Shown here: positions 841-50,901 of the stretch, piece by piece
Position numbering within the stretch: the first letter of the stretch is position 1
Layout of the letters: every line of letters begins with the position of its first letter
Translations under genes and position numbers: made by a program
From: Acidobacteriota bacterium
GTDB taxonomy: Bacteria; Acidobacteriota; Thermoanaerobaculia; UBA5066; Gp7-AA6
NCBI GenBank assembly: GCA_039931865.1
Contig: JBDTRB010000001.1
Span: 200-64,199 of the forward strand
Length of the DNA: 64,000 nt
Reading direction: 5' to 3'
Notes under the pieces: model-generated
What the model was told of the DNA's origin: nothing
The model's input: only the letters and a program-made list of their open reading frames with translations
Database searches by the model: none

Positions 841-843
841 GAG

Positions 844-973
844 TGGCTTTCAGCTGTCAGCCTTCAGCTGTCAGCGGCTTTCTCCTGGATCGGTCACAAT
901 TCGCCTGTCGCCTCGCCTGGAACCCCTCGCCCCACGTGCAGAGAGCTGCTGGCTGACAGCTGACAGCTGACAG
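844..973. repeat. Intergenic inverted repeat built from CAGCTGTCAG / CTGACAGCTG units between etfB and etfA
   Basis: cagctgtcagccttcagctgtcagc (844-868) and gctgacagctgacagctgacagct (about 949-973) are near-perfect reverse complements and each contains the PvuII-like palindrome CAGCTG repeated. Could form a long stem between the two etf genes. Confidence 0.5.
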
Positions 974-1759
974 CTACAGAACCTTCGCTTCTTCCCGCAG
1001 GAGCCGCACCAGCTCTTTGGCCGCGGCGGCCGGGTCGTCCGCGGGAATCAGGCGCACCGCCTGGCGGGGAGCGGGAAGCTCGAGCTTGCGCCAGCGAGTC
1101 TTCGCGGCTGCCGGGTCCGCTTCGGGGATGCCGAGCTCCGCGAGCTTCTTCTCGGCGATCGGCTTCTTCTTCGCGCCCATGATCCCCTTCAGCGACGCGT
1201 AGCGCGGCTCGTTCAAACCCTTCTGAGCGGTTAGAACGACGGGGAGCGCGGATTCCACGATCTCGTGCGCGCCTTCGATCTCGCGGCTCGCCGTCACCTT
1301 CCCGTCTCCGATCTCGAGGTGCATCACGTTGGCGACGTGCGGCAGGTCGAGGAGCTCCGCCGTCATCGCTCCCACGAGCGACTCGTCGGGACCGACGCCC
1401 TTCTGCCCGAACCAGAAGAAATCAAAGGTCGCGGACTTCGCTACCGCGGCGAGGGCCTTCGAGATCCCGAGAGCGTCGAGGTTCTTCGTTTCCCCGGTAT
1501 CGACCCACACGGCGTCGTCGGCGCCGCGCGCCAGGCACTCGCGCAGCCCGGTCTTGACGCGTTCCGGGCCCACGGAGACGACGGTCACGGTTCCCGCGCC
1601 CTTCGCCTCTTTCGTCTTCAACGCCTCTTCGAGCGCGTACTCGTCGTAGGGCGAGACGATCCATTTCACGTCGGATTCGTCAATCGACTTTCCGTCCGCG
1701 GCGATCTTGATCTTCGACTCCGTGTCCGGCACGTAGGCGATGGCGACGAGCGAGTTCAT
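974..1759 (-). CDS. etfB: Electron transfer flavoprotein beta subunit
   Basis: 261-aa ORF, MNSLVAIAYVPDTESKIKIAADGKSIDESDVKWIVSPYDEYALEEALK... typical EtfB. etfB-etfA gene order. Confidence 0.9.
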   Translation of the reverse strand: MNSLVAIAYVPDTESKIKIAADGKSIDESDVKWIVSPYDEYALEEALKTKEAKGAGTVTVVSVGPERVKTGLRECLARGADDAVWVDTGETKNLDALGISKALAAVAKSATFDFFWFGQKGVGPDESLVGAMTAELLDLPHVANVMHLEIGDGKVTASREIEGAHEIVESALPVVLTAQKGLNEPRYASLKGIMGAKKKPIAEKKLAELGIPEADPAAAKTRWRKLELPAPRQAVRLIPADDPAAAAKELVRLLREEAKVL

Positions 1760-3406: not shown

Positions 3407-3419
3407 ATCGGAGCAGGTT

Positions 3420-3565
3420 CGGGAATCGGGAGCCGAGCGACCAGCGGGAGCGAGACGGCCGCGGTACTCCGCGGTCAACTCGCCTTGCCTGATCGGGAAT
3501 CGGGAAACCCGGGGTTAAGAATTTCCTCGCCCTTCGATTCCCGATTCCCGATTACCGATTCCCGG
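3420..3565. repeat. Interspersed repeat element copy A: (CGGGAAT)2 - 58-bp GC-rich hairpin core - (CGGGAAT)2 - about 30-bp spacer - (GATTCCC)4
   Basis: Core is GGGAGCCGAGCGACCAGCGGGAGCGAGACGGCCGCGGTACTCCGCGGTCAACTCGCC, containing the CCGCGG-TACT-CCGCGG hairpin. Near-identical cores recur at 25072-25246 (two tandem copies), 25572-25661 (reverse orientation) and 43117-43230. Heptamer arrays at the two ends are in inverted orientation, TIR-like. Lies between fabG and the acpP promoter. Confidence 0.7.
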
Positions 3566-3581
3566 CGAGGCCCCGCCCCGG

Positions 3582-9251: not shown

Positions 9252-9336
9252 GGGTCACTCAACGAAAAAGAACCCGTCGATCTTCCGACGGAACGGGCGA
9301 TTCTAGCAAGAGAAGGCGCAAGAGGGAACCGGGGCC

Positions 9337-9445
9337 GTCAGGGGTGAGGCGTGAGGGGTGAGGCGTACGGGGGGGGTCCCGCGGGGGGGGCCCGGCTCCC
9401 GCCTGGACGTCCTCACCCCTAACCCCTGACCCCTCACGGCTCCGG
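9337..9445. repeat. G-rich/C-rich inverted-repeat element (G-quadruplex-capable hairpin), copy 1
   Basis: gtcaGGGGtgaggcgtgaGGGGtgagg...acGGGGGGGGtcccgcGGGGGGGGcccgg...cctcaCCCCtaaCCCCtgaCCCCtcacggctccgg. The arms are reverse complements built from (T/G)NAGGGG units. Shares cctcacccctaacccct(c/g)acccctcacggctccg with 14425-14544. Sits in the divergent yceD / GT1 intergenic region. Confidence 0.6.
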
Positions 9446-10610: not shown

Positions 10611-11801
10611 ATGGGCATGAGCCGACAACGGCAAGCCGCCCCGCCGCGGATCGGCATCGACGCCCGAAAGGTGAAGGACTACGGGATCGGTTCCTACATC
10701 CGCGACCTGCTCGACGCGATCGGCCGCCGCGCCGAGTCCGAGCAGTACCGATTTCTGGTGTACGTCGGGTCCGCCGACCGCGACGCGCTGCCCGCGCTCC
10801 CGCCGCACTTCGAGATCACCGCGGAAGAAGCCCCCGGATATTCGATCGCGGAGCTGACGGGATTCGCGTGGCGGATCTTCCGCGACCGGCTCGATCTCTT
10901 TCACGCCACCCACTACGTGCTGCCGCCCCTTCCCGGCACGAAGTCCGTCGTCACGATTCACGACATCATCCATCTCCTCTACCCGCAGTTTCTTCCGAGC
11001 AGGGCGGCCCATCTCTACGCGCGTTTCATGATCCGGCGCGCCCTCCAGCGCGCGGATCGAATCATCACCGTCTCCTACAACAGCAAGCGGGACCTGACGG
11101 ACTACTTCGGGATCCCGGGCTCTCGGACCGAAGTCATCTACAACGGAGTCTCGCCGCGCTTCCACCCCGACGTTTCCCCGAAGGAGCGGCGTCGGGTCGC
11201 CGAGCGGCACGGGCTGCCCACGCCGTACCTTCTCTTTCTCGGGGGCGAAAAGCCCCACAAGAACGTGCAGAATGTCGTGCGCGCGTTCGCCGAGGCCCGC
11301 CGCCGGCAGGAGCTTCCTCAGACTCTGGTCCTGGCCGGGCCGATGCCGGCCAACGAGGGGCGCCTTGAAGCGCTCATCTCCGCGCTCGACCTCTCCGGCG
11401 CGATCCGACGGCCGGGCATCGTCGACGAAGCCGACCTGCCCGGGCTTTACGCCGGCGCGGACGCACTCCTTTACCCCACGCTGTACGAGGGATTCGGGCT
11501 GCCCGTCGTGGAAGCCATGGCGTGCGGCGTCCCCGTCCTCACCTCCTCGACCTCCGCCCTTCAGGAAATCGCGGGCGGATACGCCTGTCTCGTCGACCCG
11601 ATGGACGTCGATGCGATCGCGAACGGGATCGTTCAGCTGGCAACGGACCCGCGGGTCCGCGCGGACTATTCACTTCTCGGCCGCAAGCGCGCGCTCGACT
11701 TCTCCTGGGAAAAAGCCGCGGAGAGGACGCTCGAGGTGTATGCCTCGGCGCTCGCCGGGGCGCCCCGCCGCCGGGACCCCGCCGAGGGGCGGACGGAGTG
11801 A
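10611..11801 (+). CDS. Glycosyltransferase family 4
   Basis: Real start MGMSRQRQAAPPRIGIDARKV... at 10611 (track ORF 9822-11801 is an upstream in-frame extension overlapping GT1). EGFGLPVVEAMACGVPVL motif. Confidence 0.85.
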   Translation: MGMSRQRQAAPPRIGIDARKVKDYGIGSYIRDLLDAIGRRAESEQYRFLVYVGSADRDALPALPPHFEITAEEAPGYSIAELTGFAWRIFRDRLDLFHATHYVLPPLPGTKSVVTIHDIIHLLYPQFLPSRAAHLYARFMIRRALQRADRIITVSYNSKRDLTDYFGIPGSRTEVIYNGVSPRFHPDVSPKERRRVAERHGLPTPYLLFLGGEKPHKNVQNVVRAFAEARRRQELPQTLVLAGPMPANEGRLEALISALDLSGAIRRPGIVDEADLPGLYAGADALLYPTLYEGFGLPVVEAMACGVPVLTSSTSALQEIAGGYACLVDPMDVDAIANGIVQLATDPRVRADYSLLGRKRALDFSWEKAAERTLEVYASALAGAPRRRDPAEGRTE

Positions 11802-11916
11802 GGACTCCGCGGGACTCGAAGAACCGGACTTCGCGACCCGGCTTTCGCCCTTCGCCTTTCCCGTTTCGCCCGCGTGCTTCGCCTTCCGCCCTTTGCCGTT
11901 CGCCCTTTGCCCGAAA

Positions 11917-13026
11917 ATGAGAACCGCCGTCGTCCACGACTGGCTGAACGGCATGCGCGGCGGAGAGAAGGTCCTGGAGGCGATTCTCGAAACGGTTCCC
12001 GACCCGACGATCTTCACGCTCTTTCACGTTCCGGGCGCCGTGTCACCGGCGATCGAGCGATTCCCGATCCAGGCGTCCTTTCTGAACCGCATGCCTTTTG
12101 CGGAAAAGCGCTACCGCGAGTACCTCCCGCTCTTTCCCCTTGCGGTGGAGTCCTTCGACCTCTCGAGCTTCGATCTCGTTGTCTCCTCGTCTCACTGCGT
12201 CGCAAAGGGTGCGGTCGCGCCGTCCGGCGTCCCGCATCTCTGCTACTGCCACACTCCGGTGCGATACGCGTGGGACCAGTTCGACGCCTACTTTCCTGCC
12301 GGTACAACGCGGTTCCGCGGCGTGAAGCGCGCGCTCGTCGAGCGTCTGCGGGAGTGGGATCTCGAAACAGCGGGACGCCCCTCACGCTATCTCGCCAACT
12401 CGGGCGCGGTCGCGGAGCGGATCCGCCGGCACTACGGCCGGGACGCCGAGGTCTGCCATCCGCCCGTCGACGTCGTGTTCTACGAGGGGAACGGACGCGT
12501 CCGGGAGGACTTCCTGCTCGCGGTCGGCGCTCTCGTCCCGTACAAACGGTTCGAGCACGCGATCGAGGCGGCTGCCCAGGTCTCCAGGCCGCTCGTCCTT
12601 GTCGGGAAGGGGCCCGAGGAAGCGCGCCTTCGCGCCGCCGCGGCCCGCCTCCACAGGAGAGGCGCGTCTTCCGTAGACGTAGACATCCGGATGGACCTTC
12701 GACCGGCGGAGCTTCGAGATCTCTACCGCCGCTGCGCCCTCTTTGTGCAGCCCGGGGAGGAGGACTTCGGGATCGCGGCCGTGGAGGCCATGGCGTGCGG
12801 GGCGCCGGTCGTGGCTCTCGCGCGCGGAGGGGCGCTCGACATCGTCGCGGACGGCGAAAGCGGCATCCTCTTCGCGGAAGAGGGCGCGGCCGGCCTCGCC
12901 GCCGCCATCGAGCGCGCGCTTCCCCTCGCCTTCGACTACACTCGACTTCGCGACCGGGCGCTCCGGTTTGGCCGGCCGCGATTTCTCGAGGACTTCCGCC
13001 GCCAGATCGAAGGCGTTCTCCGATGA
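11917..13026 (+). CDS. Glycosyltransferase family 4
   Basis: MRTAVVHDWLNGMRGGEKVLEAIL... ...EEDFGIAAVEAMACGAPVVA. Start chosen at the first conserved Met; the long track ORF from 11272 is an in-frame extension. Confidence 0.8.
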   Translation: MRTAVVHDWLNGMRGGEKVLEAILETVPDPTIFTLFHVPGAVSPAIERFPIQASFLNRMPFAEKRYREYLPLFPLAVESFDLSSFDLVVSSSHCVAKGAVAPSGVPHLCYCHTPVRYAWDQFDAYFPAGTTRFRGVKRALVERLREWDLETAGRPSRYLANSGAVAERIRRHYGRDAEVCHPPVDVVFYEGNGRVREDFLLAVGALVPYKRFEHAIEAAAQVSRPLVLVGKGPEEARLRAAAARLHRRGASSVDVDIRMDLRPAELRDLYRRCALFVQPGEEDFGIAAVEAMACGAPVVALARGGALDIVADGESGILFAEEGAAGLAAAIERALPLAFDYTRLRDRALRFGRPRFLEDFRRQIEGVLR

Positions 13027-14423
13027 TCCGACAGACGCGGCGCCGCGCGGCGCTCTTCCTCGCCTCCGACCTGGCGGCTTCGCTCCTCGCTTTGACCTCC
13101 GCGTACGCCCTGCGATTCGGCCTCGAGATCGTCCCCGTGCGCCACGGCGTGCCGGGGGTATTCGCGTACCTGCGCCTCTTCCCGCTCATTGCGGTGCTGT
13201 GGCCGGTCGTGTACTCCTTCTATGGTCTCTACCAGGTGCGGCGTCATCGCTCCCGCCTCGACGAGGGGATCGCGGTGCTGGTCGCGACCGCGCTCGCGAC
13301 GTTGCTTCTCGTCAGTCTCGGGAGCTTCTTCCGCGGGTTCTCCTACTCGCGGCTCGTCCTTCTTCTCTTCTCCTCGAGCGACGTGCTCTTCGTGTTTGCG
13401 GGCCGCACGGCGATCCGCCGCTACTACGAGGAAGCCTTCCGCCACGGGATCGGCGTCCGGCAGGCGGTGGTCGTCGGTGCCGGGCGGCTCGGCCGCGCTC
13501 TGGTCGACAAGCTGATCGAGCATCCCGAGGCGGGGCTCTCAATCGTCGGTTTCCTCGACGACGATCCCGGAAAGCAGGCGGAGATCTACCGCGGGATCCC
13601 GATCGTCGGTACGACCGCCGAGACGGCGGCGGTGGTCGATGCGCGCGCGATCGACACCGTCTTTCTGGCGCTGCCGCTCGACGCGCACCGCACGATGCTA
13701 TCGGTGCTCCAGGAGGTCGGCCGGACCGTCGCGGACGTGCGGGTCGTGCCGGATCTCCTGCAGCACATCACGTTCCGCGCCGGGATTGAGGACCTCGACG
13801 GCCTTCCCGTCGTGCACCTGACCTCGGTGCCGCTGACCGGATGGACCGGGCTCGTGAAACGTTCGCTCGACGTGGCCATTTCCGCCGCGGCTCTTCTCGG
13901 CACTTCCCCTGCTCTGGCGGCGATCGCGCTAGCGATCCGGATCGAGGACGGCGAGCCTATCTTCTACAGGCAGCTGAGGATGGGTCTCGACGGCCGGCCC
14001 TTTGAAATCGTCAAGTTCCGATCGATGCGCGTGGGCGCGGAAGACGAATCGGGTCCGACCTGGGCGGTCCGCGACGATCCACGGCGCACGCGCGTCGGCC
14101 GCTTCCTTCGGCGCACGAGCCTCGACGAGCTGCCGCAGCTCTGGAACGTGCTCCGGGGAGAGATGTCTCTCGTCGGCCCGCGCCCGGAACGGCCCGAATT
14201 CGTCCGCGCGTTCAAGCACGAGTTCCCGCAGTACATGCTGCGCCACCGCGTCCGCGCCGGGATCACGGGCTGGGCGCAGGTGCACGGATGGCGCGGCAAC
14301 ACGAGCCTGACGAAGAGGATCGAGTACGACCTGTACTACATCGAGAACTGGTCGCTCTCCCTGGATCTGAAAATTCTATGGCTCACGGCAAGGCACGGAT
14401 TCCGGCACAGGAATGCTTATTGA
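13023..14423 (+). CDS. Undecaprenyl-phosphate sugar phosphotransferase (WbaP/EpsB-type exopolysaccharide priming enzyme)
   Basis: [22 protein letters not shown]... N-terminal TM segments, central Rossmann-like block ([13 protein letters not shown]), C-terminal bacterial sugar-transferase domain ([12 protein letters not shown]...[21 protein letters not shown]...GITGWAQV). Start ATGA-overlaps the GT3 stop. Confidence 0.85.
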
Positions 14424-14424
14424 C

Positions 14425-14544
14425 GTGAGGGGTTAGGGGTCAGGGGTCAGGGCGGGGGGATAAGGCTTAACCCGGTCCGCCCTCACCCTCACCCTTCACC
14501 CCTCACGGCCTCGGTTCCCCTCACCCCTAACCCCTCACGGCTCC
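14425..14544. repeat. G-quadruplex/hairpin-forming inverted-repeat element, copy 2; likely bidirectional terminator between convergent genes
   Basis: GTGAGGGGTTAGGGGTCAGGGGTCAGGGCGGGGGGA (four or more G4 tracts with 3-nt loops), then the C-rich complement ...ccctcaccctcacccttcacccctcacgg...cccctcacccctaacccctcacggctccg. Fills the entire 127-bp gap between the sugar-transferase stop (14423) and the transglutaminase stop (14551). Confidence 0.6.
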
Positions 14545-14550
14545 GTTCGG

Positions 14551-16584
14551 TCACGCCAGCTTCCGTAACCTCTTCAGCCTTCCGCCGAGCTCCGCTTCGA
14601 TTTCGCGGCCTGTTTCGCGGCCTCCGAACGCGCTTTCGCAATAGAGGGTCACGACCGCTCGCGCGTCTTCCGCCGCGGCGGGAATGGCTTGCGCGAAGAG
14701 ACGCGCGACTTCCGCCGGCGGGATCGACGGCGCGATGCGGCCCAGGCGGCGGGCGAGGAGGCGGCGCAGCGCGAGGTACGCGCGCGTGGGCGGCGGGATC
14801 GCCCGGCGGCGCCCACGCCCGTACTTCAGGAGCGCGGTGAGAGCGCCCAGAGCCGCGAGCGCCGCAACGCCCAGGTACAGGTCGCGGCTCCAGACGTGAT
14901 TCCACGAGCCGAACCGCTCCGCCGCGCTCCCGACGCCCTGGCGCGCCGCATCGAGGAACTGTCCCTGGTCGAAGGAGTCGAAGCCCAGGATCCGCCGGTC
15001 GTAGAAGAACTCGATTTCCCGGCCGAAGCTGCTGACGCGCTTCCACCAGGATCCTCGCGATGTCGCCGACGGAATTCCGGACGGCGGCGTGGGATCGAGA
15101 ACCGAAAAACCTGTCCCGTCGACGTCCGCTTCGACCCACGCATGCAGGTTCGTGCCGCGGACGACGACGGCCGACGAGAGAAAGCTCATCTCACCGCCGT
15201 AGGACCCGGTCACGAGCCGCGCCGGAATGCCGCGTGAGGTCAGCATCAGAGCGGCCGCGGACGCGAAGAACTCGCAGTGGCCCGACTTCGACCGCAGGAG
15301 GAAGTGAACGACCGGATCGCCCGACGTGCGCGGCGGATCGAGCGTATAGACGAAGTCTCTGGCGAAGTGCTCGCGGATCCGGTCGTAGATCTGCCGCGGA
15401 TCGGACAGGTCGCCCGTCAGCTTCTGCGCGTACGCGCGGATCTCCGGCGGAACGACGCGAGGATCGATCGCGGTGGCGCCGATCCCGCGCGGCTCCGCTT
15501 TCCGGACTCCGGACGTGTAGCGCACGGTGCGGCGTCGGGTCGGGAGGCGCACGATTCCGTCGGAAAGAGAGACGGGGAATCCCCGGTCGAGCTCGAGTCC
15601 CACCGCCTCGTACGGAAGAAAGAGAAATCCGTTCGTGAAGGGATTCAGATCGATCGAAATCTTTCCGGCGACCCCATCCCCCGGCCTCTGTTCCGGAATC
15701 GAGGAGTCCTGGCGCGCCATTCGGGACCGCAATCCTCGCGAGTAAGGGTTGCGCGTCCACGATCCCGTCGAGTAGTCGGTGAACACCGCCTCCCGGAGCC
15801 GGAGCACACGGGGCAGCATCCGGTCAGGCGACACCTCCATCCGAAGGACGACCTGGTCGCTCCGCTTCGCGGCGCCGAACGACTCGAGATCCACCCGATC
15901 GGCCGCGAGCGCGCTCGAGAGAGCGTCCTCGACCCGCATCGGAGCGGTCACGAACGGGCTGTGCAGTCTCGGGAGCGAGTAGAAGAGCGGCGTCGCGATG
16001 AGAGCTGCCGCGAGGAGGAGGGTCGCGGCCATCCCGCCCGTCGGCACCGCGCGCAGGACCCGATCCGGGGGCGCGTCTTCGAAGTCCGCGAGCACGGCCA
16101 GGCGGCCGAGCGCGCGAAACGACAGGAACGCCATCCCGGCGAAATAGAAGAGAGAGGAGACGTGCGTCGCCGACGAGGCGGAGGCCAGCGTGACCAGGAA
16201 CAGAACGAGCAACGCGGTGCGCGCTTCGCCCGGACGCTTCAACGACGCGAGCTTCGCGATCGTCGTGAAGAGGAGAAGGTGAGAGACGGAACGGAGGAGT
16301 CCCGGGTGGAAGAGAAAGACTTCCGCGCCGAGCCAGAGAAAATAGGAAAGCCCGATCGCGTTTAAGAATCCGTCGGAGAGCCGGACCGGGGAACCGGCGC
16401 GAGCCCGCCACCAGAGCAGGAAGAGCGCGCACTCGTACGCCGCCAGCGCGACCGGAACCGCGCCCTCTGTCCAGAAGAGAGGCACGGGAGCGAGCGCCGC
16501 GAGCGGGGCCAGCACGAGAAGGTACGCGCGCCGCAGGCCCGTCGGGATCTCCGCGACCTCGCCGCGCAGGAGGTTGCCCGTCAC
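14551..16584 (-). CDS. Transglutaminase-like membrane protein (DUF3488 N-terminal TM domain plus TGc core)
   Basis: TGc catalytic region ...GHCEFFASAAALMLTSRGIPARLVTGSYGGE...HAWVEADV... Start taken as GTG overlapping the DUF58 stop (GTGA at 16581-16584); the track's 784-aa ORF extends antisense into DUF58. Confidence 0.8.
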   Translation of the reverse strand: MTGNLLRGEVAEIPTGLRRAYLLVLAPLAALAPVPLFWTEGAVPVALAAYECALFLLWWRARAGSPVRLSDGFLNAIGLSYFLWLGAEVFLFHPGLLRSVSHLLLFTTIAKLASLKRPGEARTALLVLFLVTLASASSATHVSSLFYFAGMAFLSFRALGRLAVLADFEDAPPDRVLRAVPTGGMAATLLLAAALIATPLFYSLPRLHSPFVTAPMRVEDALSSALAADRVDLESFGAAKRSDQVVLRMEVSPDRMLPRVLRLREAVFTDYSTGSWTRNPYSRGLRSRMARQDSSIPEQRPGDGVAGKISIDLNPFTNGFLFLPYEAVGLELDRGFPVSLSDGIVRLPTRRRTVRYTSGVRKAEPRGIGATAIDPRVVPPEIRAYAQKLTGDLSDPRQIYDRIREHFARDFVYTLDPPRTSGDPVVHFLLRSKSGHCEFFASAAALMLTSRGIPARLVTGSYGGEMSFLSSAVVVRGTNLHAWVEADVDGTGFSVLDPTPPSGIPSATSRGSWWKRVSSFGREIEFFYDRRILGFDSFDQGQFLDAARQGVGSAAERFGSWNHVWSRDLYLGVAALAALGALTALLKYGRGRRRAIPPPTRAYLALRRLLARRLGRIAPSIPPAEVARLFAQAIPAAAEDARAVVTLYCESAFGGRETGREIEAELGGRLKRLRKLA

Positions 16585-22284: not shown

Positions 22285-25065
22285 ATGATCCGATTTCCGG
22301 GCGCCCGCGCCGCTGCGGGCGCTTTTCTCTCGGTTCTCTTTCTTCACGCCCTCCCGGCAGTTGCGGCTCCGCGGGTCCGGCTGGCGGTCGAGCGCTCGGA
22401 CGGGGCGTGCCCCGGCAAGTCGGCCGTCCTCGGCATTGCGCGCCTGAACGGGGCGCGGACTCCCTCGGGCGATGTGTCGGGCTGCGTGCTGCTGGTCGAG
22501 GCGGGAGATCTTTCGGAGGCGCCGTTGTCGGAGCTCGCGTCGCGGCTTTCCCGCTTTCCGAAGCTCTCCTTCGTGCTCCTCGACCTCTCGTCCGCGACCG
22601 GCGAGCCCGCGCGGATCGCGTATGCGGTCAAGAAGCTCTCTTCCGCCGCCCGCGGCGTGTCTCCCGACGCCTCGATCGGGCTCGATCTCGGAACCCGCCC
22701 GGCGGGCGACGAGGACCTGTCGCCATACGCCGACGCTCTCGTGCCGCGCCGCGAAGGCGTCGTTGCCGGCGTCGAGGCGCCGCTGCCCGGCCGATGGCTC
22801 GTACGACCGCTCGAGGGCTTTCCCGCGTCCGACGCGCTGCGCGCGATGGAGCCGTTCCCGCGAGACGAGCTGGGAAGCGTCCGCCTGGTGGCGGTGACCG
22901 GCAACCCGGCGGGAACTCCGCGCCTGGACGACGCCGGCGTCCCGGGTCTCGAGCGGCTGCAGTCGTACTTCACCGACGACGTATCGCCCGACCCGACCCG
23001 GACCGCGATCAGCCTCCCCGACCAGACGTACGACGCGCTGCGCTTCTTCGACGCGAAGAAGTTCACGCCGGTCATCTTCCTCCATCAGTCGCCGCGGGTG
23101 CAGCTCGCGGTTTCCGACGGCGCGTGGACCTCGGCCTCTGTCGAAAACCTCGTCACCGGCGCGCGACGCGACTTCGACCTTCGGGGCGCGAAGACGCTGG
23201 CGCTCGATCCTTCCGCCGGTCCCCTCGCGGTCGTCCTCCACCCGGCGGAGAAGCCCGGCGGAGAGACGCGCAGCGCAGTCGAGGTCGGCGCCACACGCGG
23301 CCTGACCGCCGAAGAGATCGTCGCCCGCGAGCGGGCCTGGGAGGCGGGCCAGAGGGAGCGCGTCGAGTCGTACGTGGGCGACATGAACGCGTCGCTGCGC
23401 TTCCGCGTGGCCGACGTGAACGAGACGTTCGACCTGACGATCCGGGGACCCTTCTTCTACCGGCGCGGTGAGGCCGCGGACTGGCAGTGGAACGAGTTTT
23501 TCTTAAACGGAGTGAAGTGGAAGGGAAAGACGCTGCCGAAGCTTCCCATCCTCCAGCCTGAGAAGGTGACCACGCTCCCGCTCGATCTGCGCCTGTCCGA
23601 GGACTATGCCTACGAGCTGAAAGGTGAGGGCGCGGTCGAGGGGCGGCGCGCGTACCACGTCGCGTACACCCCGAAGAGCTCCGTGGCCACGAAGGCCGTC
23701 TACCGGGGCAGCGTCTGGATCGACAAGCAGACGTTTGCGCTGCTGCGGCGCGATTCGATCCAGATGAATTTGAAGGGAGAGACGCTCTCGAACGTCCAGA
23801 CGGAGCACTACCGGCCGGTTCCGGGACATCCGGACCTGATGCTTCCGCTCGAGATCACCGGCACGCAGGTCTTCTCGACCGCGGGCCGCACGACCGCGAT
23901 CGAACGGGACGTCGTGCTGCAGTCCGTGGAAGTGAACTCTCCCGACTTCGTCGAGCGGCGCGCAAAGGCCTACGCCTCCGAGTCGCAGATGATCCGGGAC
24001 ACGGACATCGGGATGCGCAACCTGATACCCGACCCCGCGACGCCGGGCGCGCGCATTGTCGAGACCAAGGTTTCCAGGAAGAGCACGTTCGCAATCCTGG
24101 GCGGCTTCTACGACAAGTCCCTGGACTACCCGATTCCCCTGATCGGAATTCAGCACTTCAACTTCGACCTGTTCGGAAAGGGGAAGCAGCTTTCCGTGTT
24201 CTTCGCGGGAGCCCTGCTCACGACGAATTACTCCGACCCGGCGTTCCTCGGGAGCCGATTCGACTTCGGCGCTGATCTTTTCGGCGCCGCGGTGGCGTTC
24301 GGCGACGTGTCGTACCGGAACGGCGCGCAGGTCACGGCCGAAAAAATCAAACACCTGCCGGCGGTTCTCCAGTTGAATCTCGGCCATCCGCTCGGGCCGT
24401 ACCTCAAGGCGTCTCTCGGAGTTTTCGCGAAGTACGACAACTACCAGCGGGACAAGGACACCGGCCCGAACTTCGTGACTCCCGTCGACACGATCACGAA
24501 CGGAGCGGAGTTAAAGCTCGTGGCCAACCTCTCGGGGTTCAACGCGTCGGTTTCGGGCAACTACTTCCGGCGGGGGAAATGGGAACCGTGGGGCGATCCC
24601 GCGACCTCGGAGTACCAGCCGTCGCAGAAGGACTACTTCCGCTGGGACGCGAACATCTCGAAGGACCAGTATTTCTCGGGCTTCCGAAAGCTCCACGTCG
24701 GGCTCTCGTATCTCGGCGGCACGGACCTCGACCGCTTCTCGAAGTACGAGTTCGGCGCGTTTTCCGGTCATCCGCTGCGCGGCTTCCAGAGCGGAAGCCT
24801 CCGGACCGAGCGCGCGTACCTCGCCAACGTTTCCTACGGGATCAACATCGAGGACATCATCCGGTTCGAAGGGTTCTACGACCAGGCGCTGTTGAACGAC
24901 AGGGTGTCGGGTTTCAAAAACACGTATTTTTCCGGCGCGGGCCTCCTCGCGTCGCTGAACGGCCCGTGGAAGAACTCGCTCTTCCGCGCGGAGATCGGCG
25001 TGCCCGTCGTGTCGCACGGCGTGTCGGGGTATGTGATCAATGTGCTTTTGTTGAAGCTGTTCTAA
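22285..25065 (+). CDS. Large outer-membrane protein: signal peptide, N-terminal region, LolA-like middle domain and C-terminal beta-barrel (ends ...NVLLLKLF)
   Basis: Start MIRFPGARAAAGAFLSVLFLHALPAVAA (signal peptide) at 22285; the track ORF from 21826 overlaps recA. Alternating amphipathic beta-strand pattern in the last ~400 aa and a C-terminal aromatic residue (F), typical of OMP barrels. 926 aa. Confidence 0.7.
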   Translation: MIRFPGARAAAGAFLSVLFLHALPAVAAPRVRLAVERSDGACPGKSAVLGIARLNGARTPSGDVSGCVLLVEAGDLSEAPLSELASRLSRFPKLSFVLLDLSSATGEPARIAYAVKKLSSAARGVSPDASIGLDLGTRPAGDEDLSPYADALVPRREGVVAGVEAPLPGRWLVRPLEGFPASDALRAMEPFPRDELGSVRLVAVTGNPAGTPRLDDAGVPGLERLQSYFTDDVSPDPTRTAISLPDQTYDALRFFDAKKFTPVIFLHQSPRVQLAVSDGAWTSASVENLVTGARRDFDLRGAKTLALDPSAGPLAVVLHPAEKPGGETRSAVEVGATRGLTAEEIVARERAWEAGQRERVESYVGDMNASLRFRVADVNETFDLTIRGPFFYRRGEAADWQWNEFFLNGVKWKGKTLPKLPILQPEKVTTLPLDLRLSEDYAYELKGEGAVEGRRAYHVAYTPKSSVATKAVYRGSVWIDKQTFALLRRDSIQMNLKGETLSNVQTEHYRPVPGHPDLMLPLEITGTQVFSTAGRTTAIERDVVLQSVEVNSPDFVERRAKAYASESQMIRDTDIGMRNLIPDPATPGARIVETKVSRKSTFAILGGFYDKSLDYPIPLIGIQHFNFDLFGKGKQLSVFFAGALLTTNYSDPAFLGSRFDFGADLFGAAVAFGDVSYRNGAQVTAEKIKHLPAVLQLNLGHPLGPYLKASLGVFAKYDNYQRDKDTGPNFVTPVDTITNGAELKLVANLSGFNASVSGNYFRRGKWEPWGDPATSEYQPSQKDYFRWDANISKDQYFSGFRKLHVGLSYLGGTDLDRFSKYEFGAFSGHPLRGFQSGSLRTERAYLANVSYGINIEDIIRFEGFYDQALLNDRVSGFKNTYFSGAGLLASLNGPWKNSLFRAEIGVPVVSHGVSGYVINVLLLKLF

Positions 25066-25071
25066 GCAGAC

Positions 25072-25246
25072 CCGAATCGGGAGCCGAGCGAACAGCGGGA
25101 GCGACGGTACTCGGTACTCCCCGGTCAACTTGCCTTGCGGGCCTGGATCCGTAATCGGGAATCGGGAGCCGAGCGACCCAGCGGGAGCGAGACGGCCGCG
25201 GTACTCCGCGGTCAACTTGCCTCGCGGGCCTGAATCGGGAATCGGC
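25072..25246. repeat. Interspersed repeat element, copies B1+B2 (two tandem cores, forward orientation)
   Basis: B1 is degenerate (cgaatcgggagccgagcgaacagcgggagcgacggtactcggtactccccggtcaacttgcc). B2 is near-canonical (gggaatcgggagccgagcgacccagcgggagcgagacggccgcggtactccgcggtcaacttgcc) and is followed by tgaatcgggaatcgg. Begins 7 bp after the OMP stop. Confidence 0.7.
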
Positions 25247-25251
25247 GAAAA

Positions 25252-25500
25252 CTAGTCCGACAGCACGGCCTTCTGCACGTCGAACACGAGGACGCCCTCC
25301 TGCTCTCCGCTTGTGATCAGGCCCGCGCCCGTCTCGCGACAAAACGCGTCTACGTCGGCGGCAGCCGCAGGGTCCGTCGCGAGAAGACGGGCCCGTGCGC
25401 CCGGAGGACAGCACCTCAACGCCGCAGCGAGCCGCAGGACAGGAATCGGGCAGTAAAGGCCCCGGGCATCCACCTCGACGACTGTTTCAAGCTTTTCCAC
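25252..25500 (-). CDS. TusA-like sulfurtransferase (CPxP motif)
   Basis: About 82 aa from GTG: (M)EKLETVVEVDARGLYCPIPVLRLAAALRCCPPGARARLLATDPAAAADVDAFCRETGAGLITSGEQEGVLVFDVQKA. The LDxRGLxCPxP motif is diagnostic of the TusA/SirA family. The track ORF (143 aa) runs on into the repeat. Confidence 0.6.
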   Translation of the reverse strand: MEKLETVVEVDARGLYCPIPVLRLAAALRCCPPGARARLLATDPAAAADVDAFCRETGAGLITSGEQEGVLVFDVQKAVLSD

Positions 25501-25571
25501 GACCCCATCGTCTCGCGATCCGGACCATTCAGCGAATTGTTTTCGTCCCTGACACGCCCCGTTGCCCTCCT

Positions 25572-25661
25572 CGATTCCCGATTCCCGATTCCCGATTCCC
25601 GGAGGCGAGTTGACCGCGGAGTACCGCGGCCGTCTCGCTCCCGGGGGGTCGCTCGGCTCTC
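25572..25661. repeat. Interspersed repeat element, copy C (reverse orientation): (GATTCCC)4 + core
   Basis: cgattcccgattcccgattcccgattcccggaggcgagttgaccgcggagtaccgcggccgtctcgctcccggggggtcgctcggctctc is the reverse complement of the copy A/B/D core plus heptamers. Together with B2 it brackets the tusA-like gene in inverted orientation. Confidence 0.7.
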
Positions 25662-42009: not shown

Positions 42010-43116
42010 TGCTCCGCCGACTCGCGGTGGCGATGCTCTGTGCCGGCGCCGCCGTCTCGCTCGCCGCGCAGACGCCACCCGCCGGCCTGATCAACGCGCA
42101 CGCCGAATCGCGGGACGCTTCAATGGGTCTCGACCGGGCGTTTCGCGCGGCCGCCGCTTCCGCTGCCCCGATCTGGGTCGGCTATGCCGTGAGTTCCCCG
42201 GAGGGTCACCGGGTCTGCTGCGGAGGATCGTGGGACGGCGGCGGGTGTTCCGGGCGGTGCTCTCTCGAGGAGGACTCGAGCTCCAGGAGGTTCGAGACAT
42301 CGACGAAGGGCGAGCTCGAGTCCGGCTCCCGCACTCTGATCTTCTACCGGCTCGAAAAGGGCCGCCCGACCCGCGTACGCCTTTTTCCCGACGCCTGCTC
42401 GATCGACGGAGGTGGAAGGCCCGTCGTGTGGTTGACCGGTGTCAAACCTTCCGAGAGCGTGGCGCTTCTCTCGGCCATGGTCGCCGAGGGTTCCCCGGCG
42501 GACGGCCGGGACTCGGACGACGGCGAAGCCCCGCGGCCCGGACGCGAGGCCCTGACGGCGATTGCCCTCCATGCCGACCCGGCGGCCGATGCCGCTCTCG
42601 AGCGGTTCGCGCTTCCTCCGTCCGGGGAGTCCATCCGCAAGAAGGCCATTTTCTGGCTCGGCAATTCGCGGGGCCGCCGAGGATACGACGTGCTGAGAAG
42701 GCTCGCCGTCGAGGAGTCGAGCGGCGACATCCGGAAGCACCTGACGCTTGCGCTCTCGCAGAGCCCGGTTCCGGAAGCTCTCGGGACCCTCTTCCAGATG
42801 GCGAAGCGCGACGCGAGCCCCGCCGTCCGGGGACAGGCGCTCTTCTGGCTCGCGCAGAAGGCGGGCCACCGCGCGGCGGAGGCGATCAACGACGCGATCC
42901 GCGACGACCCCGAAACCGAGGTCAAGAAGAAAGCGGTTTTCGCGCTCACCCGGCTCCCATCCGAAGAATCGACCACGCAGCTGATCCACGTCGCGCGGAC
43001 CAACCGCAACCCGGTGGTGCGAAAGCAGGCCCTGTTCTGGCTGGGGCAATCGAGGGACCCTCGAGCGCTCGGATATATCGAAGAGGTGCTGACGAAGGAG
43101 GCGGGGACCGGACGCG
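42009..43116 (+). CDS. Secreted HEAT-repeat protein 2; 3' end undefined (no in-frame stop before a repeat element)
   Basis: From MLRRLAVAMLCAGAAVSLAAQ (signal); start overlaps the DUF4097 stop (TGATG). HEAT/PBS-like repeats (AIFWLGNSRGRRGYDVL, AVRGQALFWLAQKAGHRAAEAI, VVRKQALFWLGQSRDPRAL). The frame stays open through repeat copy D and on to 44147, which is biologically implausible. Confidence 0.55.
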
Positions 43117-43396
43117 GGAGTCGGGAATCGGGAGCCGAGCGACCCCCGGGAGCGAGACGGCCGCGGTACCCCGCGGTCAACTCGCCCTGCGGGTCTGGAT
43201 CGGGAATCGCGAATCGGGAATCGCTAATCGGAAAGCGAAGGGCAGGACAGCGACGCTCTTCGTTCCCTGATTCGTGGACGGATGGCAAAACGGCGCCTCG
43301 TCGGCGTGGAGTCACGCGGCAAGGCTCCCGGAGTCGTTCGATTCCCCATTCCCGATTCCCGATTCCCGGCTCCCGGCTCCCGATTCCCGGCCCCGG
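43117..43396. repeat. Interspersed repeat element, copy D: heptamers + core + (GGGAATC-like)4 + 107-bp spacer + (GATTCCC)n
   Basis: ggagtcgggaatcgggagccgagcgacccccgggagcgagacggccgcggtaccccgcggtcaactcgcc...ggatcgggaatcgcgaatcgggaatcgctaatcgg...[107 bp]...tcgattccccattcccgattcccgattcccggctcccggctcccgattcccgg. Ends 15 bp before the kdsD start. Confidence 0.7.
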
Positions 43397-47906: not shown

Positions 47907-48226
47907 ACCGGCGGGCGGGTCGGCCGGATGCGGCCTCCACCGCCCGCCTGATCCCTCCGTTCGCTCTCGCTCCCGCTTAGCCACCACCGTGGTGAAACCT
48001 CCCTCTCCCCGCGATCGGGGAGAGGGCCGGGGTGAGGGGCCCCGCAGGGAGTTGGTGTGGCTTCGCCGGGCAGATGGCTGCGCCGCTCACTCCGACTCCG
48101 GGAAACCGGCGTCTTCTCCTTGGTTTCCTTGAGAGCCGCTCGCGCCATTTCTGTGGCCCGATCCATGCACCGCCGCGGACCTTGGCTTTTCCGGGGGCGC
48201 TGCGCACCAATACCCGCAACTCCCGC

Positions 48227-49012: not shown

Positions 49013-49062
49013 CCCGACCCGTCCGGCCGCTGACCTTCGCCGGGGGGCGCGGTGTCGACGCC

Positions 49063-49092
49063 GCAAAAACAAGAACCCCGCCGTGGCGGGGC
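49063..49092 (-). terminator. Rho-independent terminator (GC stem followed by U-tract) for the Ig-like repeat protein gene
   Basis: Minus-strand RNA reads AGCCCCGCCACGGCGGGGUUCUUGUUUUUGCGG, 25 nt after the TAG stop at 49117-49119. Confidence 0.6.
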
Positions 49093-49116
49093 TCTTGAGA
49101 GGAACCGAGAGGGTCC

Positions 49117-50901
49117 CTAACTCTTGATGAGCGAGTTGTTGACCACCACGAATTTGCGCCGGCCGATCTCGGTCCTGCGCGGGGCGACGCCGCCCGGGTT
49201 GTCGTAGGCGTAGATCACCAGGTCGTGCTCCGTGTCCGTCATGTGCGTCGTGTCGATCGGGAAGAAGAAACCGACGTCCGGGGTCGGGACGCGGATGTCG
49301 TTGTCCGGTACGTCCGGGCGGTACAGCCCGTAGGTTCCGGAGGGGACGTCGAGGGTCGCCAGAACCTGACCGTCGACGTCGAGCTCCAGGCGGGAGATCC
49401 CGCCGTCGAAGTCATAGGCCCAGCCGGAGACGAGGAACGTCTGGTTGATGAACTGGTACTCGTACGGAGAGTCGACGTACCCGAACGCCGGCCGGTCGGG
49501 GTTGATGTTGGAGAGGTCGCAGAGGATGTCGACCGACATGGCCGCGATCTGGATGACCGTCGCCTCGTCGTCGCCGACCCGCAGAGCGAGAGTGTGCTTG
49601 CCCGAGTTGGTCAGTCCGGTCACCTGGGCGCCTCCGGCCGCGGCCGGGATCACCACCTGCAGGAGGCCGGTGGACGAGTCCTGCTGGAGGGCGAACGCGA
49701 AGTTGAAGCCGGCGTTGTCCGCGTTCACGTAACCCGAATAGGCGCGCGCGACGTCGGGGCGATTGACGCCGTAGCAGTTCAGGAGCGCCGTCCCCAGCCG
49801 GACGCAGTCCCGGCGGCTGTTGGAGATCGGCTCGCCATCCAGGAGCAGCTCGACGTAGGCGACCTGGCCCTTGTCCAGCCGCGATCCCGTGTCGAGGGCC
49901 CAGCCCTTGACGATGTTGCTGAAGAAGGAGACCGGGAGAGCTGGAGTTCCGCTCGGGCCCGGCGGGAAGCACGGGGACGGGCAGACGTTCGGGGGCGGCA
50001 CGATCGTGAAGGGTGGCTGGCAGTTCAGCGAAGCCTTGTCGAGGGGAAAGTCGATCCTCCCGAAAGGCGCCAGATTGCTGCCGTTGTTGATGATCTGGAC
50101 GGTACGCGTGCCGATCACTCTTGCCGTTCCAGTCGAGTCCGTGACGCGCACCGAGAAGACGTGCACGCCATTTAAAAGCTTCGTCGTGTCGACGTTGGCG
50201 ACGAATCCCGAAAAGAGCGCGAACGGCACGTCGGGAAACGCGGCGGCTACGTCGGGCCGGGTCGTCCCGTAGGTGGCGGTCTGCGGGTTCGTCCCCCCGG
50301 AGCGGCCGCGGCCGGCGTCGCCGACCCGTCCGATCGCTCCCGCGACGATCTGGCCGTCTACCAGAAAGTCGATGTGGTCGATCCCCTGATCATCGAGGGC
50401 CCATCCCACGATCGGGTAGGAGCCGTTGGCCCCCTCGGTCACGTTGTCGGCGGGCGTGTCGATGTATCCGAAGGCCGCCTGGTTGATCGTATTGTCGACG
50501 ATGACCGAGACGGGCCCGAGGGTGAAGGTGCTGCCCGACGATTCGGTCACGCGGATCGAGATCGAGTGGGTGCCGTTCGAGAGCGATCGCGTGTAAAACG
50601 AGGTGATGTACCCCGGTTTGGGCGTCGCGCTGTTGGCGTAGTTCGGAAACGCGTTCAGAACGTCGATGCGCGGCAGGTTGAAATCCGCCGTGTTCGTGGG
50701 GAGGGAGTTGCCGTCGACGAACAGATCGATCCGGTCGACCTTGTTGAAGTCGAGAACCCACCCTGCGACGCGAACGACGCCGGAGACCCGCTGCCCCGCC
50801 GTGGGCTCGTCGATGACTCCGATCGGCTGCGCGGCCGCCAGTGCGGACATGAGCAGACCGGCTCCCGCCAGAAGCGCCAGATGCCGGGGCGCCGTCTTCA
50901 T
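49117..50901 (-). CDS. Secreted protein with four tandem about-130-aa Ig-like/beta-sandwich repeats
   Basis: 594 aa, signal peptide MKTAPRHLALLAGAGLLMSALAAAQP. Four repeats each begin G(V/Y/R)(I/V)D and carry a GW(V/A)(L/Y)D...I(D/S)...(L/F)xVDGQ core (GVIDEPTAGQ...VAGWVLD...IDLFVDGN; GYIDTPADN...IVGWALD...IDFLVDGQ; GRIDFPLDK...VKGWALD...VELLLDGE; GYVDSPYEY...VSGWAYD...LELDVDGQ). GGAGG RBS. Confidence 0.7.
   Translation of the reverse strand: MKTAPRHLALLAGAGLLMSALAAAQPIGVIDEPTAGQRVSGVVRVAGWVLDFNKVDRIDLFVDGNSLPTNTADFNLPRIDVLNAFPNYANSATPKPGYITSFYTRSLSNGTHSISIRVTESSGSTFTLGPVSVIVDNTINQAAFGYIDTPADNVTEGANGSYPIVGWALDDQGIDHIDFLVDGQIVAGAIGRVGDAGRGRSGGTNPQTATYGTTRPDVAAAFPDVPFALFSGFVANVDTTKLLNGVHVFSVRVTDSTGTARVIGTRTVQIINNGSNLAPFGRIDFPLDKASLNCQPPFTIVPPPNVCPSPCFPPGPSGTPALPVSFFSNIVKGWALDTGSRLDKGQVAYVELLLDGEPISNSRRDCVRLGTALLNCYGVNRPDVARAYSGYVNADNAGFNFAFALQQDSSTGLLQVVIPAAAGGAQVTGLTNSGKHTLALRVGDDEATVIQIAAMSVDILCDLSNINPDRPAFGYVDSPYEYQFINQTFLVSGWAYDFDGGISRLELDVDGQVLATLDVPSGTYGLYRPDVPDNDIRVPTPDVGFFFPIDTTHMTDTEHDLVIYAYDNPGGVAPRRTEIGRRKFVVVNNSLIKS

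Follow-up and report, generated by a model that had tools for sequence, protein, structure and literature searches.

A GTNAGGG hairpin between convergent genes of an Acidobacteriota genome adds a lineage and a unit to the known heptameric repeat hairpins

Introduction

In a 64,000-nt stretch of DNA from an Acidobacteriota bacterium (contig JBDTRB010000001.1; hereafter the window), a 127-nt gap separates the convergent stop codons of a sugar transferase gene (plus strand) and a TgpA-type transglutaminase gene (minus strand), and is filled by a single element (14424-14541) in which a G-rich arm is followed by C-rich blocks, raising the question of what this element is and whether it serves the two genes between which it lies. 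The original prediction described it as a telomere-like G-quadruplex (G4) motif with a C-rich reverse-complementary partner, took it for a likely bidirectional terminator of two convergent operons, and regarded it as unusual. Here, we find that the G-rich arm is built of tandem 7-nt units and that the element represents a new lineage and a new unit (GTNAGGG) for the known heptameric repeat hairpins. The element adds a further copy to a repeat class known from reports of 1990-2015, and the evidence speaks against a G4 device dedicated to termination.

Tandem heptamers have been described in several bacterial groups. According to Mrázek (2007), as cited in PMC4692102 and PMC4679880, heptamers are the most over-represented long simple sequence repeats (SSRs) in many bacteria, for which polymerase slippage was proposed; cyanobacterial short tandemly repeated repetitive (STRR) heptanucleotide sequences date from Mazel et al. 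(1990), as cited in PMC4692102. Rehm et al. (2015; PMC4692102) described GGGGA(C/T)T arrays in Nostoc and, in Xanthomonas, GGGAATC-type arrays that number ~185 per genome; ~90% of the arrays are intergenic, they lie near the ends of open reading frames (ORFs) with a mode of four units, and they include 70-75 convergent pairs per genome capable of forming stem-loops. These repeats form G4 and i-motif structures in vitro, are mostly transcribed, and vary in length and sequence between related species (PMC4692102). In addition, TAACTGA arrays often adjoin start codons in Beggiatoaceae, Cyanobacteria and Bacteroidetes (MacGregor, 2015; PMC4679880), and Geobacter metallireducens carries multicopy elements of four or five heptanucleotides (GGACCGG; MTYCTGA) (Aklujkar et al., 2009; PMC2700814).

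Results

Heptamer arrays in the window

A period scan of the window, in which tandem runs with a score of at least 8 were counted, revealed 16 runs of period 7, 15 of them in the non-coding DNA that makes up 16% of the window, against an expectation of 2.4 runs in block-shuffled sequence. Non-coding DNA held 0-1 runs at periods 4, 5, 8, 10 and 11, and the runs at periods 6, 9 and 12 were mostly coding. The 7-nt periodicity is specific to non-coding DNA, and although the arrays are built from mutually unrelated units, most of them form inverted pairs, inverted pairing being the rule whatever the unit. An element of this design is hardly unusual, given the 16 arrays in the window and a class already described in Xanthomonas and Nostoc. 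Nor is its motif a one-off, as a sibling of the same unit family lies at 9329-9445 and GGGGTNAGGGGT, allowing at most one mismatch, has 13 matches in the window, where 0.89 would be expected and 100 shuffles never gave more than 4.

The element in the convergent gap follows the same pattern. The G-rich arm holds a tandem array of period 7 (14428-14452; 3.6 copies with 94% matches by Tandem Repeats Finder, TRF), and this G-tract array of at least two tandem 7-nt units, together with its intergenic position near ORF ends, corresponds to the heptameric G-rich SSRs. The best inverted pair joins 14424-14446 to 14517-14539 (23 nt, 96% complementary, 70 nt apart). Reverse-complementary C-rich blocks are present as originally predicted, but they constitute a duplicated arm rather than a single partner: the copies at 14486-14509 and 14518-14541 form a 32-nt direct repeat (TRF span 14486-14548), making two alternative hairpins possible. 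Folded as RNA, the region reached -67.4 kcal/mol on the plus strand (z = -3.1) and -81.5 kcal/mol on the minus strand (z = -5.8), which agrees with the original view of the whole gap as a structured element with long hairpin potential on both strands. The G tracts on the plus strand, four or more in number, also make an intramolecular G4 motif in silico, with the top G4Hunter score of the window (2.48 at 14420-14470) and a canonical G3+L1-7 motif inside the G-rich arm (14429-14452). A telomere repeat was rejected, as the element lies internally between genes that are syntenic in eleven related contigs and the likeness is one of sequence only.

G4 potential does not set the class apart. Of the 37 arrays in the clade, 26 lie no more than 250 nt from a reverse-complementary partner, and pairing is as common for units without a G3/C3 tract (15/22) as for G-tract units (11/15), indicating that the hairpin, and not G4, is the common feature. 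The two kinds of array are also of much the same length, the medians being 3.6 units where the unit has a G-tract and 3.8 where it has none. Every sibling element tested folded into a long hairpin (z = -3.1 to -9.0), among them the one at 9329-9445 (-90.2 kcal/mol, z = -5.0), whose terminal motif, CCCCTCACGGCTCCG, recurs in the focal element. The window shows no excess of canonical G4 motifs (15 versus 20.7 ± 4.1 in shuffles). The modelled G4 potential of the focal element is real, yet it is not the defining trait of the heptamer-array class. Rfam covariance models at the gathering score gave no match in the whole window, and a tRNA scan of the window found nothing.

Turnover at orthologous gaps

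The order and orientation of the sugar transferase and convergent TgpA genes are kept in eleven related contigs, which represent nine distinct loci, as L122 repeats L121, and L124 is identical to L125 with L123 differing by 1 nt. The focal element was found in none of the eleven orthologous convergent gaps, whose lengths range from 0 to 237 nt (Table 1). Being missing from these gaps, several of which have no spacer at all, the focal element is not conserved. In L210 the gap (11405-11581) holds two and a half copies of GTCATCCTGAGCCCTTCG.../GTCATCCTGAGCGCAGCGAAGGATCTG, which we take to be a common sequence of soil bacteria resembling repetitive extragenic palindromes (REPs), so the same gap has accepted different repeat classes.

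Heptamer arrays also turn over at other gaps. Inverted heptamer hairpins abound in L210 and L211, two syntenic loci of 21 kb, with units that include AAAATCC, AAAACGT, GCTGTCA, CGTAAGG, GACTGAG and AGTTTTC. Between yceD and a glycosyltransferase (GT) gene, the window carries a GGGGTGA array and L210 a GCTGTCA array, and L211 is empty; between moxR and the DUF58 gene, the window has a 4-nt gene overlap, and L210 and L211 carry hairpins with differing units. The right arm of the yceD-GT hairpin in L210 ends in register with the motif CCTGATAGCTT, which is single-copy in L211 and the window, a sequence pattern suggesting that the arm grew in place from a local seed. Some arrays persist, as a TTTCCCG-type array at the gap between two GT genes is common to the window, L126 (inverted, 1786-1898) and L207 (inverted, 302-386). 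In the window (11842-11912), some ten TTCGCCC/TTTCCCG heptamers form a degenerate array with a single arm, immediately before the start of a glycosyltransferase gene (11917); this copy seems old and decaying. Taking these loci together, arrays appear and disappear at a given gap, and their unit changes, between relatives whose proteins are 75-84% identical. The density of period-7 arrays is 0.25-0.29 per kb in the window and its syntenic relatives versus 0.07 per kb in unrelated metagenome loci, a background set made of metagenome-contig matches to a window protein, all of them distant relatives of at most 54% identity.

Terminator potential

A G4 or hairpin device that terminates both convergent operons would suit the position of the element, which fills the gap from 1 nt past one stop codon to 9 nt from the other, as well as its high G4Hunter score, its strong hairpins on both strands and the order of its arms, in which transcription from either side meets the G-rich arm first. 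For related GGGAATC arrays, G4 formation in vitro, transcription and a position mostly <50 nt from stop codons have been described (PMC4692102). However, no U-tract follows the hairpin on either strand, the plus strand continuing with GGCTCCGTTCGG and the minus strand with TCAATAAGCATTCC, and the stem of 23-27 nt with loops of 21-70 nt departs from the short stem (5-14 bp) and 3-8-nt loop of an intrinsic terminator. A consensus terminator scan of the convergent gap gave no match, which speaks for the element in that the gap offers no other terminator-like site, and against it in that the element itself does not fit the consensus.

Canonical hairpins with a U-tract do occur in the window. One such intrinsic terminator (49060-49100, minus strand), CCCCGCC-ACG-GCGGGG followed by TTCTTGTTTTTG, immediately follows the stop codon of a gene (49117-50850), indicating that this genome uses ordinary hairpin-plus-U terminators. 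Furthermore, eight of the eleven orthologous gaps (six of the nine distinct ones) measure 0-38 nt and lack the element, so that no termination device is required there, and the same architecture recurs inside the etfB-etfA and fab operons, between divergent promoters, and with units incapable of forming G4, in a window whose canonical G4 motifs do not exceed those of shuffles. The missing U-tract and the mixed operon-internal, divergent and convergent contexts do not support a dedicated terminator role, and we consider the bidirectional terminator of the original prediction unlikely. A generic effect of the modelled hairpin on transcripts, such as 3'-end protection or pausing, is possible.

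A terminator-like hairpin with a U-tract (TCCGTCGGAAGATCGACGGG TTCTTTTTCG) was also observed at 9263-9292 (minus strand), only ~10 nt upstream of the yceD start. The site belongs to the 5' leader of the yceD-rpmF-plsX-fab cluster, has no counterpart at this position in L210 and L211, and is possibly an attenuator or leader structure.

Polarity of the inverted pairs

Inverted heptamer pairs in all fetched loci (n = 67) comprised 52 with the G-rich arm first, 6 with the C-rich arm first and 9 neutral ones, so that 52 of 58 skewed pairs are G-first; removal by eye of five duplicate listings left ~48 versus 5 (binomial p ~1e-9). The G-first order extends to units without G-tracts (ATTTTGG, AGTGATT, GACTGAG), and the C-first exceptions mostly belong to a CCCCTCTCCC...GGGAGAGGGG type of repeat. 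Because this polarity reads alike on both strands, neither the direction of replication nor that of transcription can cause it; it needs an intrinsic 5'-to-3' cause, for example the order of co-transcriptional folding, fold-back of a nascent strand or a polar enzyme.

A scan for GGGGTNAGGGGTNAGGGG, with one genome per species, returned at least 120 loci in many phyla, the source genome not being among the matches listed. Roughly 300 matches are expected by chance in 596 Gb at uniform composition, and with so many chance matches at this pattern length the scan says little on distribution; it served to supply examples of paired arrays and the polarity count. Clear inverted GGGGTNA hairpins among the matches listed came from Gemmataceae, Vicinamibacterales, Chloroflexia, Gammaproteobacteria, Alcaligenaceae and Oceanisphaera.

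Other features of the window

The sugar transferase gene (13023-14423, plus strand) matches Pfam Bac_transf (5.9e-71), and its product is 100% identical to a database protein named undecaprenyl-phosphate glucose phosphotransferase from a metagenome-assembled genome (MAG; Acidobacteriota bacterium), the next-closest relatives (75-84% protein identity) including Thermoanaerobaculia. The transglutaminase gene (14551-16584, minus strand) carries the Pfam domains TgpA_N, Transglut_core and DUF4129. An 863-aa ORF at 22474-25065 (plus strand) is coding-like in its third-position G+C content (GC3 0.87) and has no Pfam match at 1e-5.

Table 1. Parts of the focal element, sibling arrays in the window, and orthologous convergent gaps in related contigs
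Feature	Position or length	Strand	Composition and context
TGA stop, undecaprenyl-phosphate sugar transferase gene	14421-14423	+	G-rich arm begins at next base
G-rich arm	14424-14459	+	C GTGAGGG GTTAGGG GTCAGGG GTCAGGG CGGGGGG; four GTNAGGG heptamers and a degenerate fifth unit, CGGGGGG (G6 run)
Spacer (loop) from G-rich arm to first C-rich copy	14460-14476		
C-rich arm, copy 1	14477-14509	+	CCGCCCTCACCCTCACCCTTCACCCCTCACGGC; nearer, less perfect partner of the G-rich arm, 78-86% complementary
C-rich arm, copy 2	14517-14541	+	CCCCTCACCCCTAACCCCTCACGGC; best partner of the G-rich arm; outer stem in minimum free energy fold, both strands
Stop codon, TgpA-type transglutaminase gene	14551-14553	-	9 nt beyond end of element
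Sibling of GTNAGGG unit family	9329-9445		GTGAGGG/GTGAGGC arm, then CCTCACCCCTAACCCCTGACCCCTCACGGCTCCGG; between divergent starts of yceD (9251, -) and glycosyltransferase (9484, +)
GCTGTCA/GCTGACA inverted arrays	843-979		Unit without G4 capacity; inside etfB-etfA operon (Pfam ETF); fold z = -3.6
GGGAATC inverted arrays with one ~87-nt repeat copy	3419-3571		Between fabG stop and acpP
GGGAATC inverted arrays around one ~87-nt repeat copy	43115-43396		Up to 7 units
GGGAATC-flanked ~87-nt repeat	25074-25660		Two tandem copies (+) and one inverted copy (-); bracket small tusA-like gene
Gap in L121/L122	38 nt		One-armed GGGAGTC/GGGGGTC array
Gap in L123-L125	36 nt		Without array
Gap in L126	140 nt		Three direct arrays (GTGAGGC, GGGAAAC, AACTGAT), without inverted partner
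Gap in L207	237 nt		Two GCTGTCA-like units (GCTGTCAGCCGTCAGC) and unrelated sequence
Gap in L208	10 nt		None
Gap in L209	20 nt		None
Gap in L210	177 nt		Different repeat
Gap in L211	0 nt		Genes overlap

Sibling hairpins of the window lie between etfB and etfA, between fabG and acpP, between divergent starts (yceD and GT; tusA-like gene and purH) and between convergent stops. The GGGAATC arrays are associated with a dispersed ~87-nt repeat, present in five copies in 64 kb (3419-3506, 25074-25160, 25155-25245, 25572-25660 in reverse, and 43115-43223), in which GGGAATC heptamers lie on either side of a conserved core, GAGCCGAGCGACC..GCGGGAGCGAGACGGCCGCGGTACTCCGCGGTCAACTCGCC, that contains a CCGCGG-TACT-CCGCGG hairpin. 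An Rfam scan of this core gave no match, and one copy holds a CGGTACT CGGTACT variant within it (25105-25119). Between inverted copies lies a small tusA/SirA-like ORF (25252-25480, minus strand) with a CPxP motif (...RGLYCPIPVLR...), its family judged by eye; as listed, the ORF reaches upstream through the ~87-nt repeat, leaving its true start uncertain. At 42990-43230, the plus-strand frame of a HEAT-repeat-like C-terminus seems to enter the GGGAATC/~87-nt repeat and to stop at a TAA at 43226, so the repeat may have extended the 3' end of this gene; a crude gene map instead placed a minus-strand ORF there (42344-43009), which has an odd second-position G+C content (GC2 0.70) and no Pfam match.

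A further hairpin, CCCTCTCCCC-gcgat-GGGGAGAGGG, followed by GGGGTGAGGGG, was seen at 48000-48042. The CCCCTCTCCC/GGGAGAGGGG hairpin joined to GGGGTGAGGGG units also occurs in L056, L065 and L092 (Anaerolineales, Alphaproteobacteria and Planctomycetaceae loci), suggesting that these heptamers are accompanied by a second type of repeat that is itself widespread.

Discussion

Origin of the arrays and competing explanations

Taking these observations together, the element between the sugar transferase and transglutaminase genes is probably one copy of a genome-wide class of inverted heptamer-array hairpins, with roughly 3-5 units per array, that arises by slippage and arm copying and has no function specific to this locus. 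Replication slippage with a 7-nt step, following the proposal credited to Mrázek (2007), would expand a local seed, intrastrand copying templated by the hairpin would keep or create the complementary arm, and the units would then homogenise within the array. In both convergent transcripts, the element would act as a generic strong hairpin, possibly serving as a 3'-end protector or a weak, U-tract-independent site of pausing or termination. Reached first by transcription from either side, the G-rich arm could form a short-lived G4, of RNA or DNA, in competition with the hairpin. We speculate that the G-first polarity reflects selection against exposing C-rich, G-poor RNA, on which Rho can load, ahead of the synthesis of its partner.

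Several observations weigh against this explanation. Slippage leaves the 7-nt step size unexplained, and likewise the recurrence of identical units (GGGAATC, GCTGACA, GGGGTNA and TAACTGA-like) across unrelated phyla and sites. Nor does it account for AT-rich units (AAAATCC, AAAACGT) in a genome of 67% GC, and these, with the recurring units, hint at dispersal or at a sequence-specific partner. The motif CCCCTCACGGCTCCG is common to both GTNAGGG loci, for which copying from a common source is a better fit than independent slippage, and the TTTCCCG-type array has persisted at the gap between the two GT genes in the window, L126 and L207. In addition, a comparison of sense and antisense RNA stability in ten operon-internal hairpins (4 sense, 3 antisense, 3 equal) gave no signal either way. 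The recurring units, the AT-rich units and the common flank motifs fit less well with slippage and keep alive readings that invoke a mobile element or dedicated machinery.

As a mobile element, each pair of arrays would form the terminal inverted repeats of a small non-autonomous hairpin, similar to a miniature inverted-repeat transposable element (MITE) or REP and possibly mobilised in trans. This would account for identical units at several sites of one genome, for AT-rich units as compositional outliers, for presence and absence at orthologous gaps, for the flank motif CCCCTCACGGCTCCG / GGNGCCGTGAGG that is common to both GTNAGGG loci and seen also in L126 and L210, and for the conserved ~65-nt core with GGGAATC arrays on its flanks, of which 64 kb contain five copies. 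However, the sequences between the arms are unrelated in the copies at 9.3 kb and 14.4 kb, neither of which shows a visible target-site duplication, so that the focal element has the inverted arms of a MITE but neither a conserved interior nor a flanking duplication. One-armed (L121) and purely direct (L126) arrays exist, and in L210 the register that the right arm keeps with a local, conserved motif points to growth in situ. We regard a mobile origin of the arrays as improbable, and the GGGAATC sub-family, with its conserved core, as a possible MITE candidate.

We give only a small chance to the broader proposal that inverted heptamer hairpins are the product of a dedicated process that is shared by many phyla, proceeds in steps of 7 nt and has a built-in 5'-to-3' polarity. 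It could take either of two forms, namely fold-back synthesis on a nascent G-rich strand or a hairpin-specific enzyme or mobile system. If true, it would explain the strict period, the G-first rule, the units recurring across phyla and the replacement of units at one site.

Alternatively, a nucleic-acid-binding protein with a register of 7 nt might have its binding sites in the arrays. Heptad iterons at the DNA level are known for ribbon-helix-helix omega-type repressors, and the strict period of 7 irrespective of unit, as well as the abutting of start and stop codons, would agree with such sites. At the RNA level, regulators of the S1, Csp or CsrA type were proposed as binders of the TAACTGA repeats by MacGregor (PMC4679880), and a preprint reports that deletion of heptamer repeats in Nostoc altered recO/recF reporter expression, a binding partner being postulated (10.1101/2022.06.06.494920). 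However, at least eight unrelated units coexist in the clade, so that many specificities would be needed, the unit differs at the same gap between relatives, and no candidate protein was identified in this analysis, making this explanation very unlikely. An assembly artefact, in the form of a chimeric palindrome or collapsed repeat, is hardly credible: the source is a MAG and heptamer arrays often lie at contig ends in other assemblies, but the flanking gene order and orientation are the same in eleven independent contigs, and members of the class are also found in the finished genomes of Xanthomonas and Nostoc and in long-read contigs of megabase size.

Comparison with known repeat systems

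Like an intrinsic terminator, the focal element places a GC-rich hairpin directly after a stop codon; unlike one, it lacks a U-tract and combines a 23-27-bp stem with loops of 21-70 nt instead of 3-8 nt. Enterobacterial REPs and bacterial interspersed mosaic elements (BIMEs) are abundant intergenic hairpins inside or after operons, where they stabilise mRNA 3' ends and act as weak terminators, and by analogy they provide the most plausible working model for how the heptamer hairpins may act. REPs have a conserved sequence and a dedicated REP-associated tyrosine transposase (RAYT), and their arms are not tandem 7-nt units, whereas the focal arms are tandem heptamers without a REP consensus.

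The elements of Geobacter metallireducens also have four or five units; they number dozens per genome, some are drawn as strand-switching (hairpin) sites, and a regulatory role was proposed for them. They differ in their units, in being partly intragenic, and in having been described without an analysis of turnover between species. With the STRR and TAACTGA repeats, the arrays described here share a short intergenic 7-nt design, a patchy phylogeny and a frequent position abutting start codons, and TAACTGA-like units are present in the relatives L126 and L211. Unlike the TAACTGA sets, of which 169 are direct and 1 indirect, the inverted pair is the rule here.

The closest likeness is to the class of Rehm et al. 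(2015), which likewise consists of tandem 7-nt G-tract units, intergenic near ORF ends, with inverted pairs and with unit and length variation between relatives. The identical Xanthomonas unit, GGGAATC, occurs at four loci of the window, and the 'convergent' pairs of Rehm et al. (PMC4692102) have the same arrangement as the G-first pairs here. The focal element differs in its unit, GTNAGGG (GGGGTNA), its Acidobacteriota host and its duplicated C-rich arm, and the set of this clade differs in including AT-rich units that match the G-rich ones in architecture and in length (~4 units), which weakens the G4-based reading of PMC4692102. The class is now extended to Acidobacteriota, at a high density (~0.25 arrays per kb), and hairpins with different units occupy the same intergenic gap in related genomes. 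G-rich and AT-rich units are alike in pairing and in their length of ~4 units, undercutting the view that four units are a G4 requirement, and the G-rich arm is almost always 5'. The polarity, the turnover of units and the non-G4 siblings are points worth following up at the level of the class, for which these lineages offer good material for asking why bacteria favour a 7-nt step.

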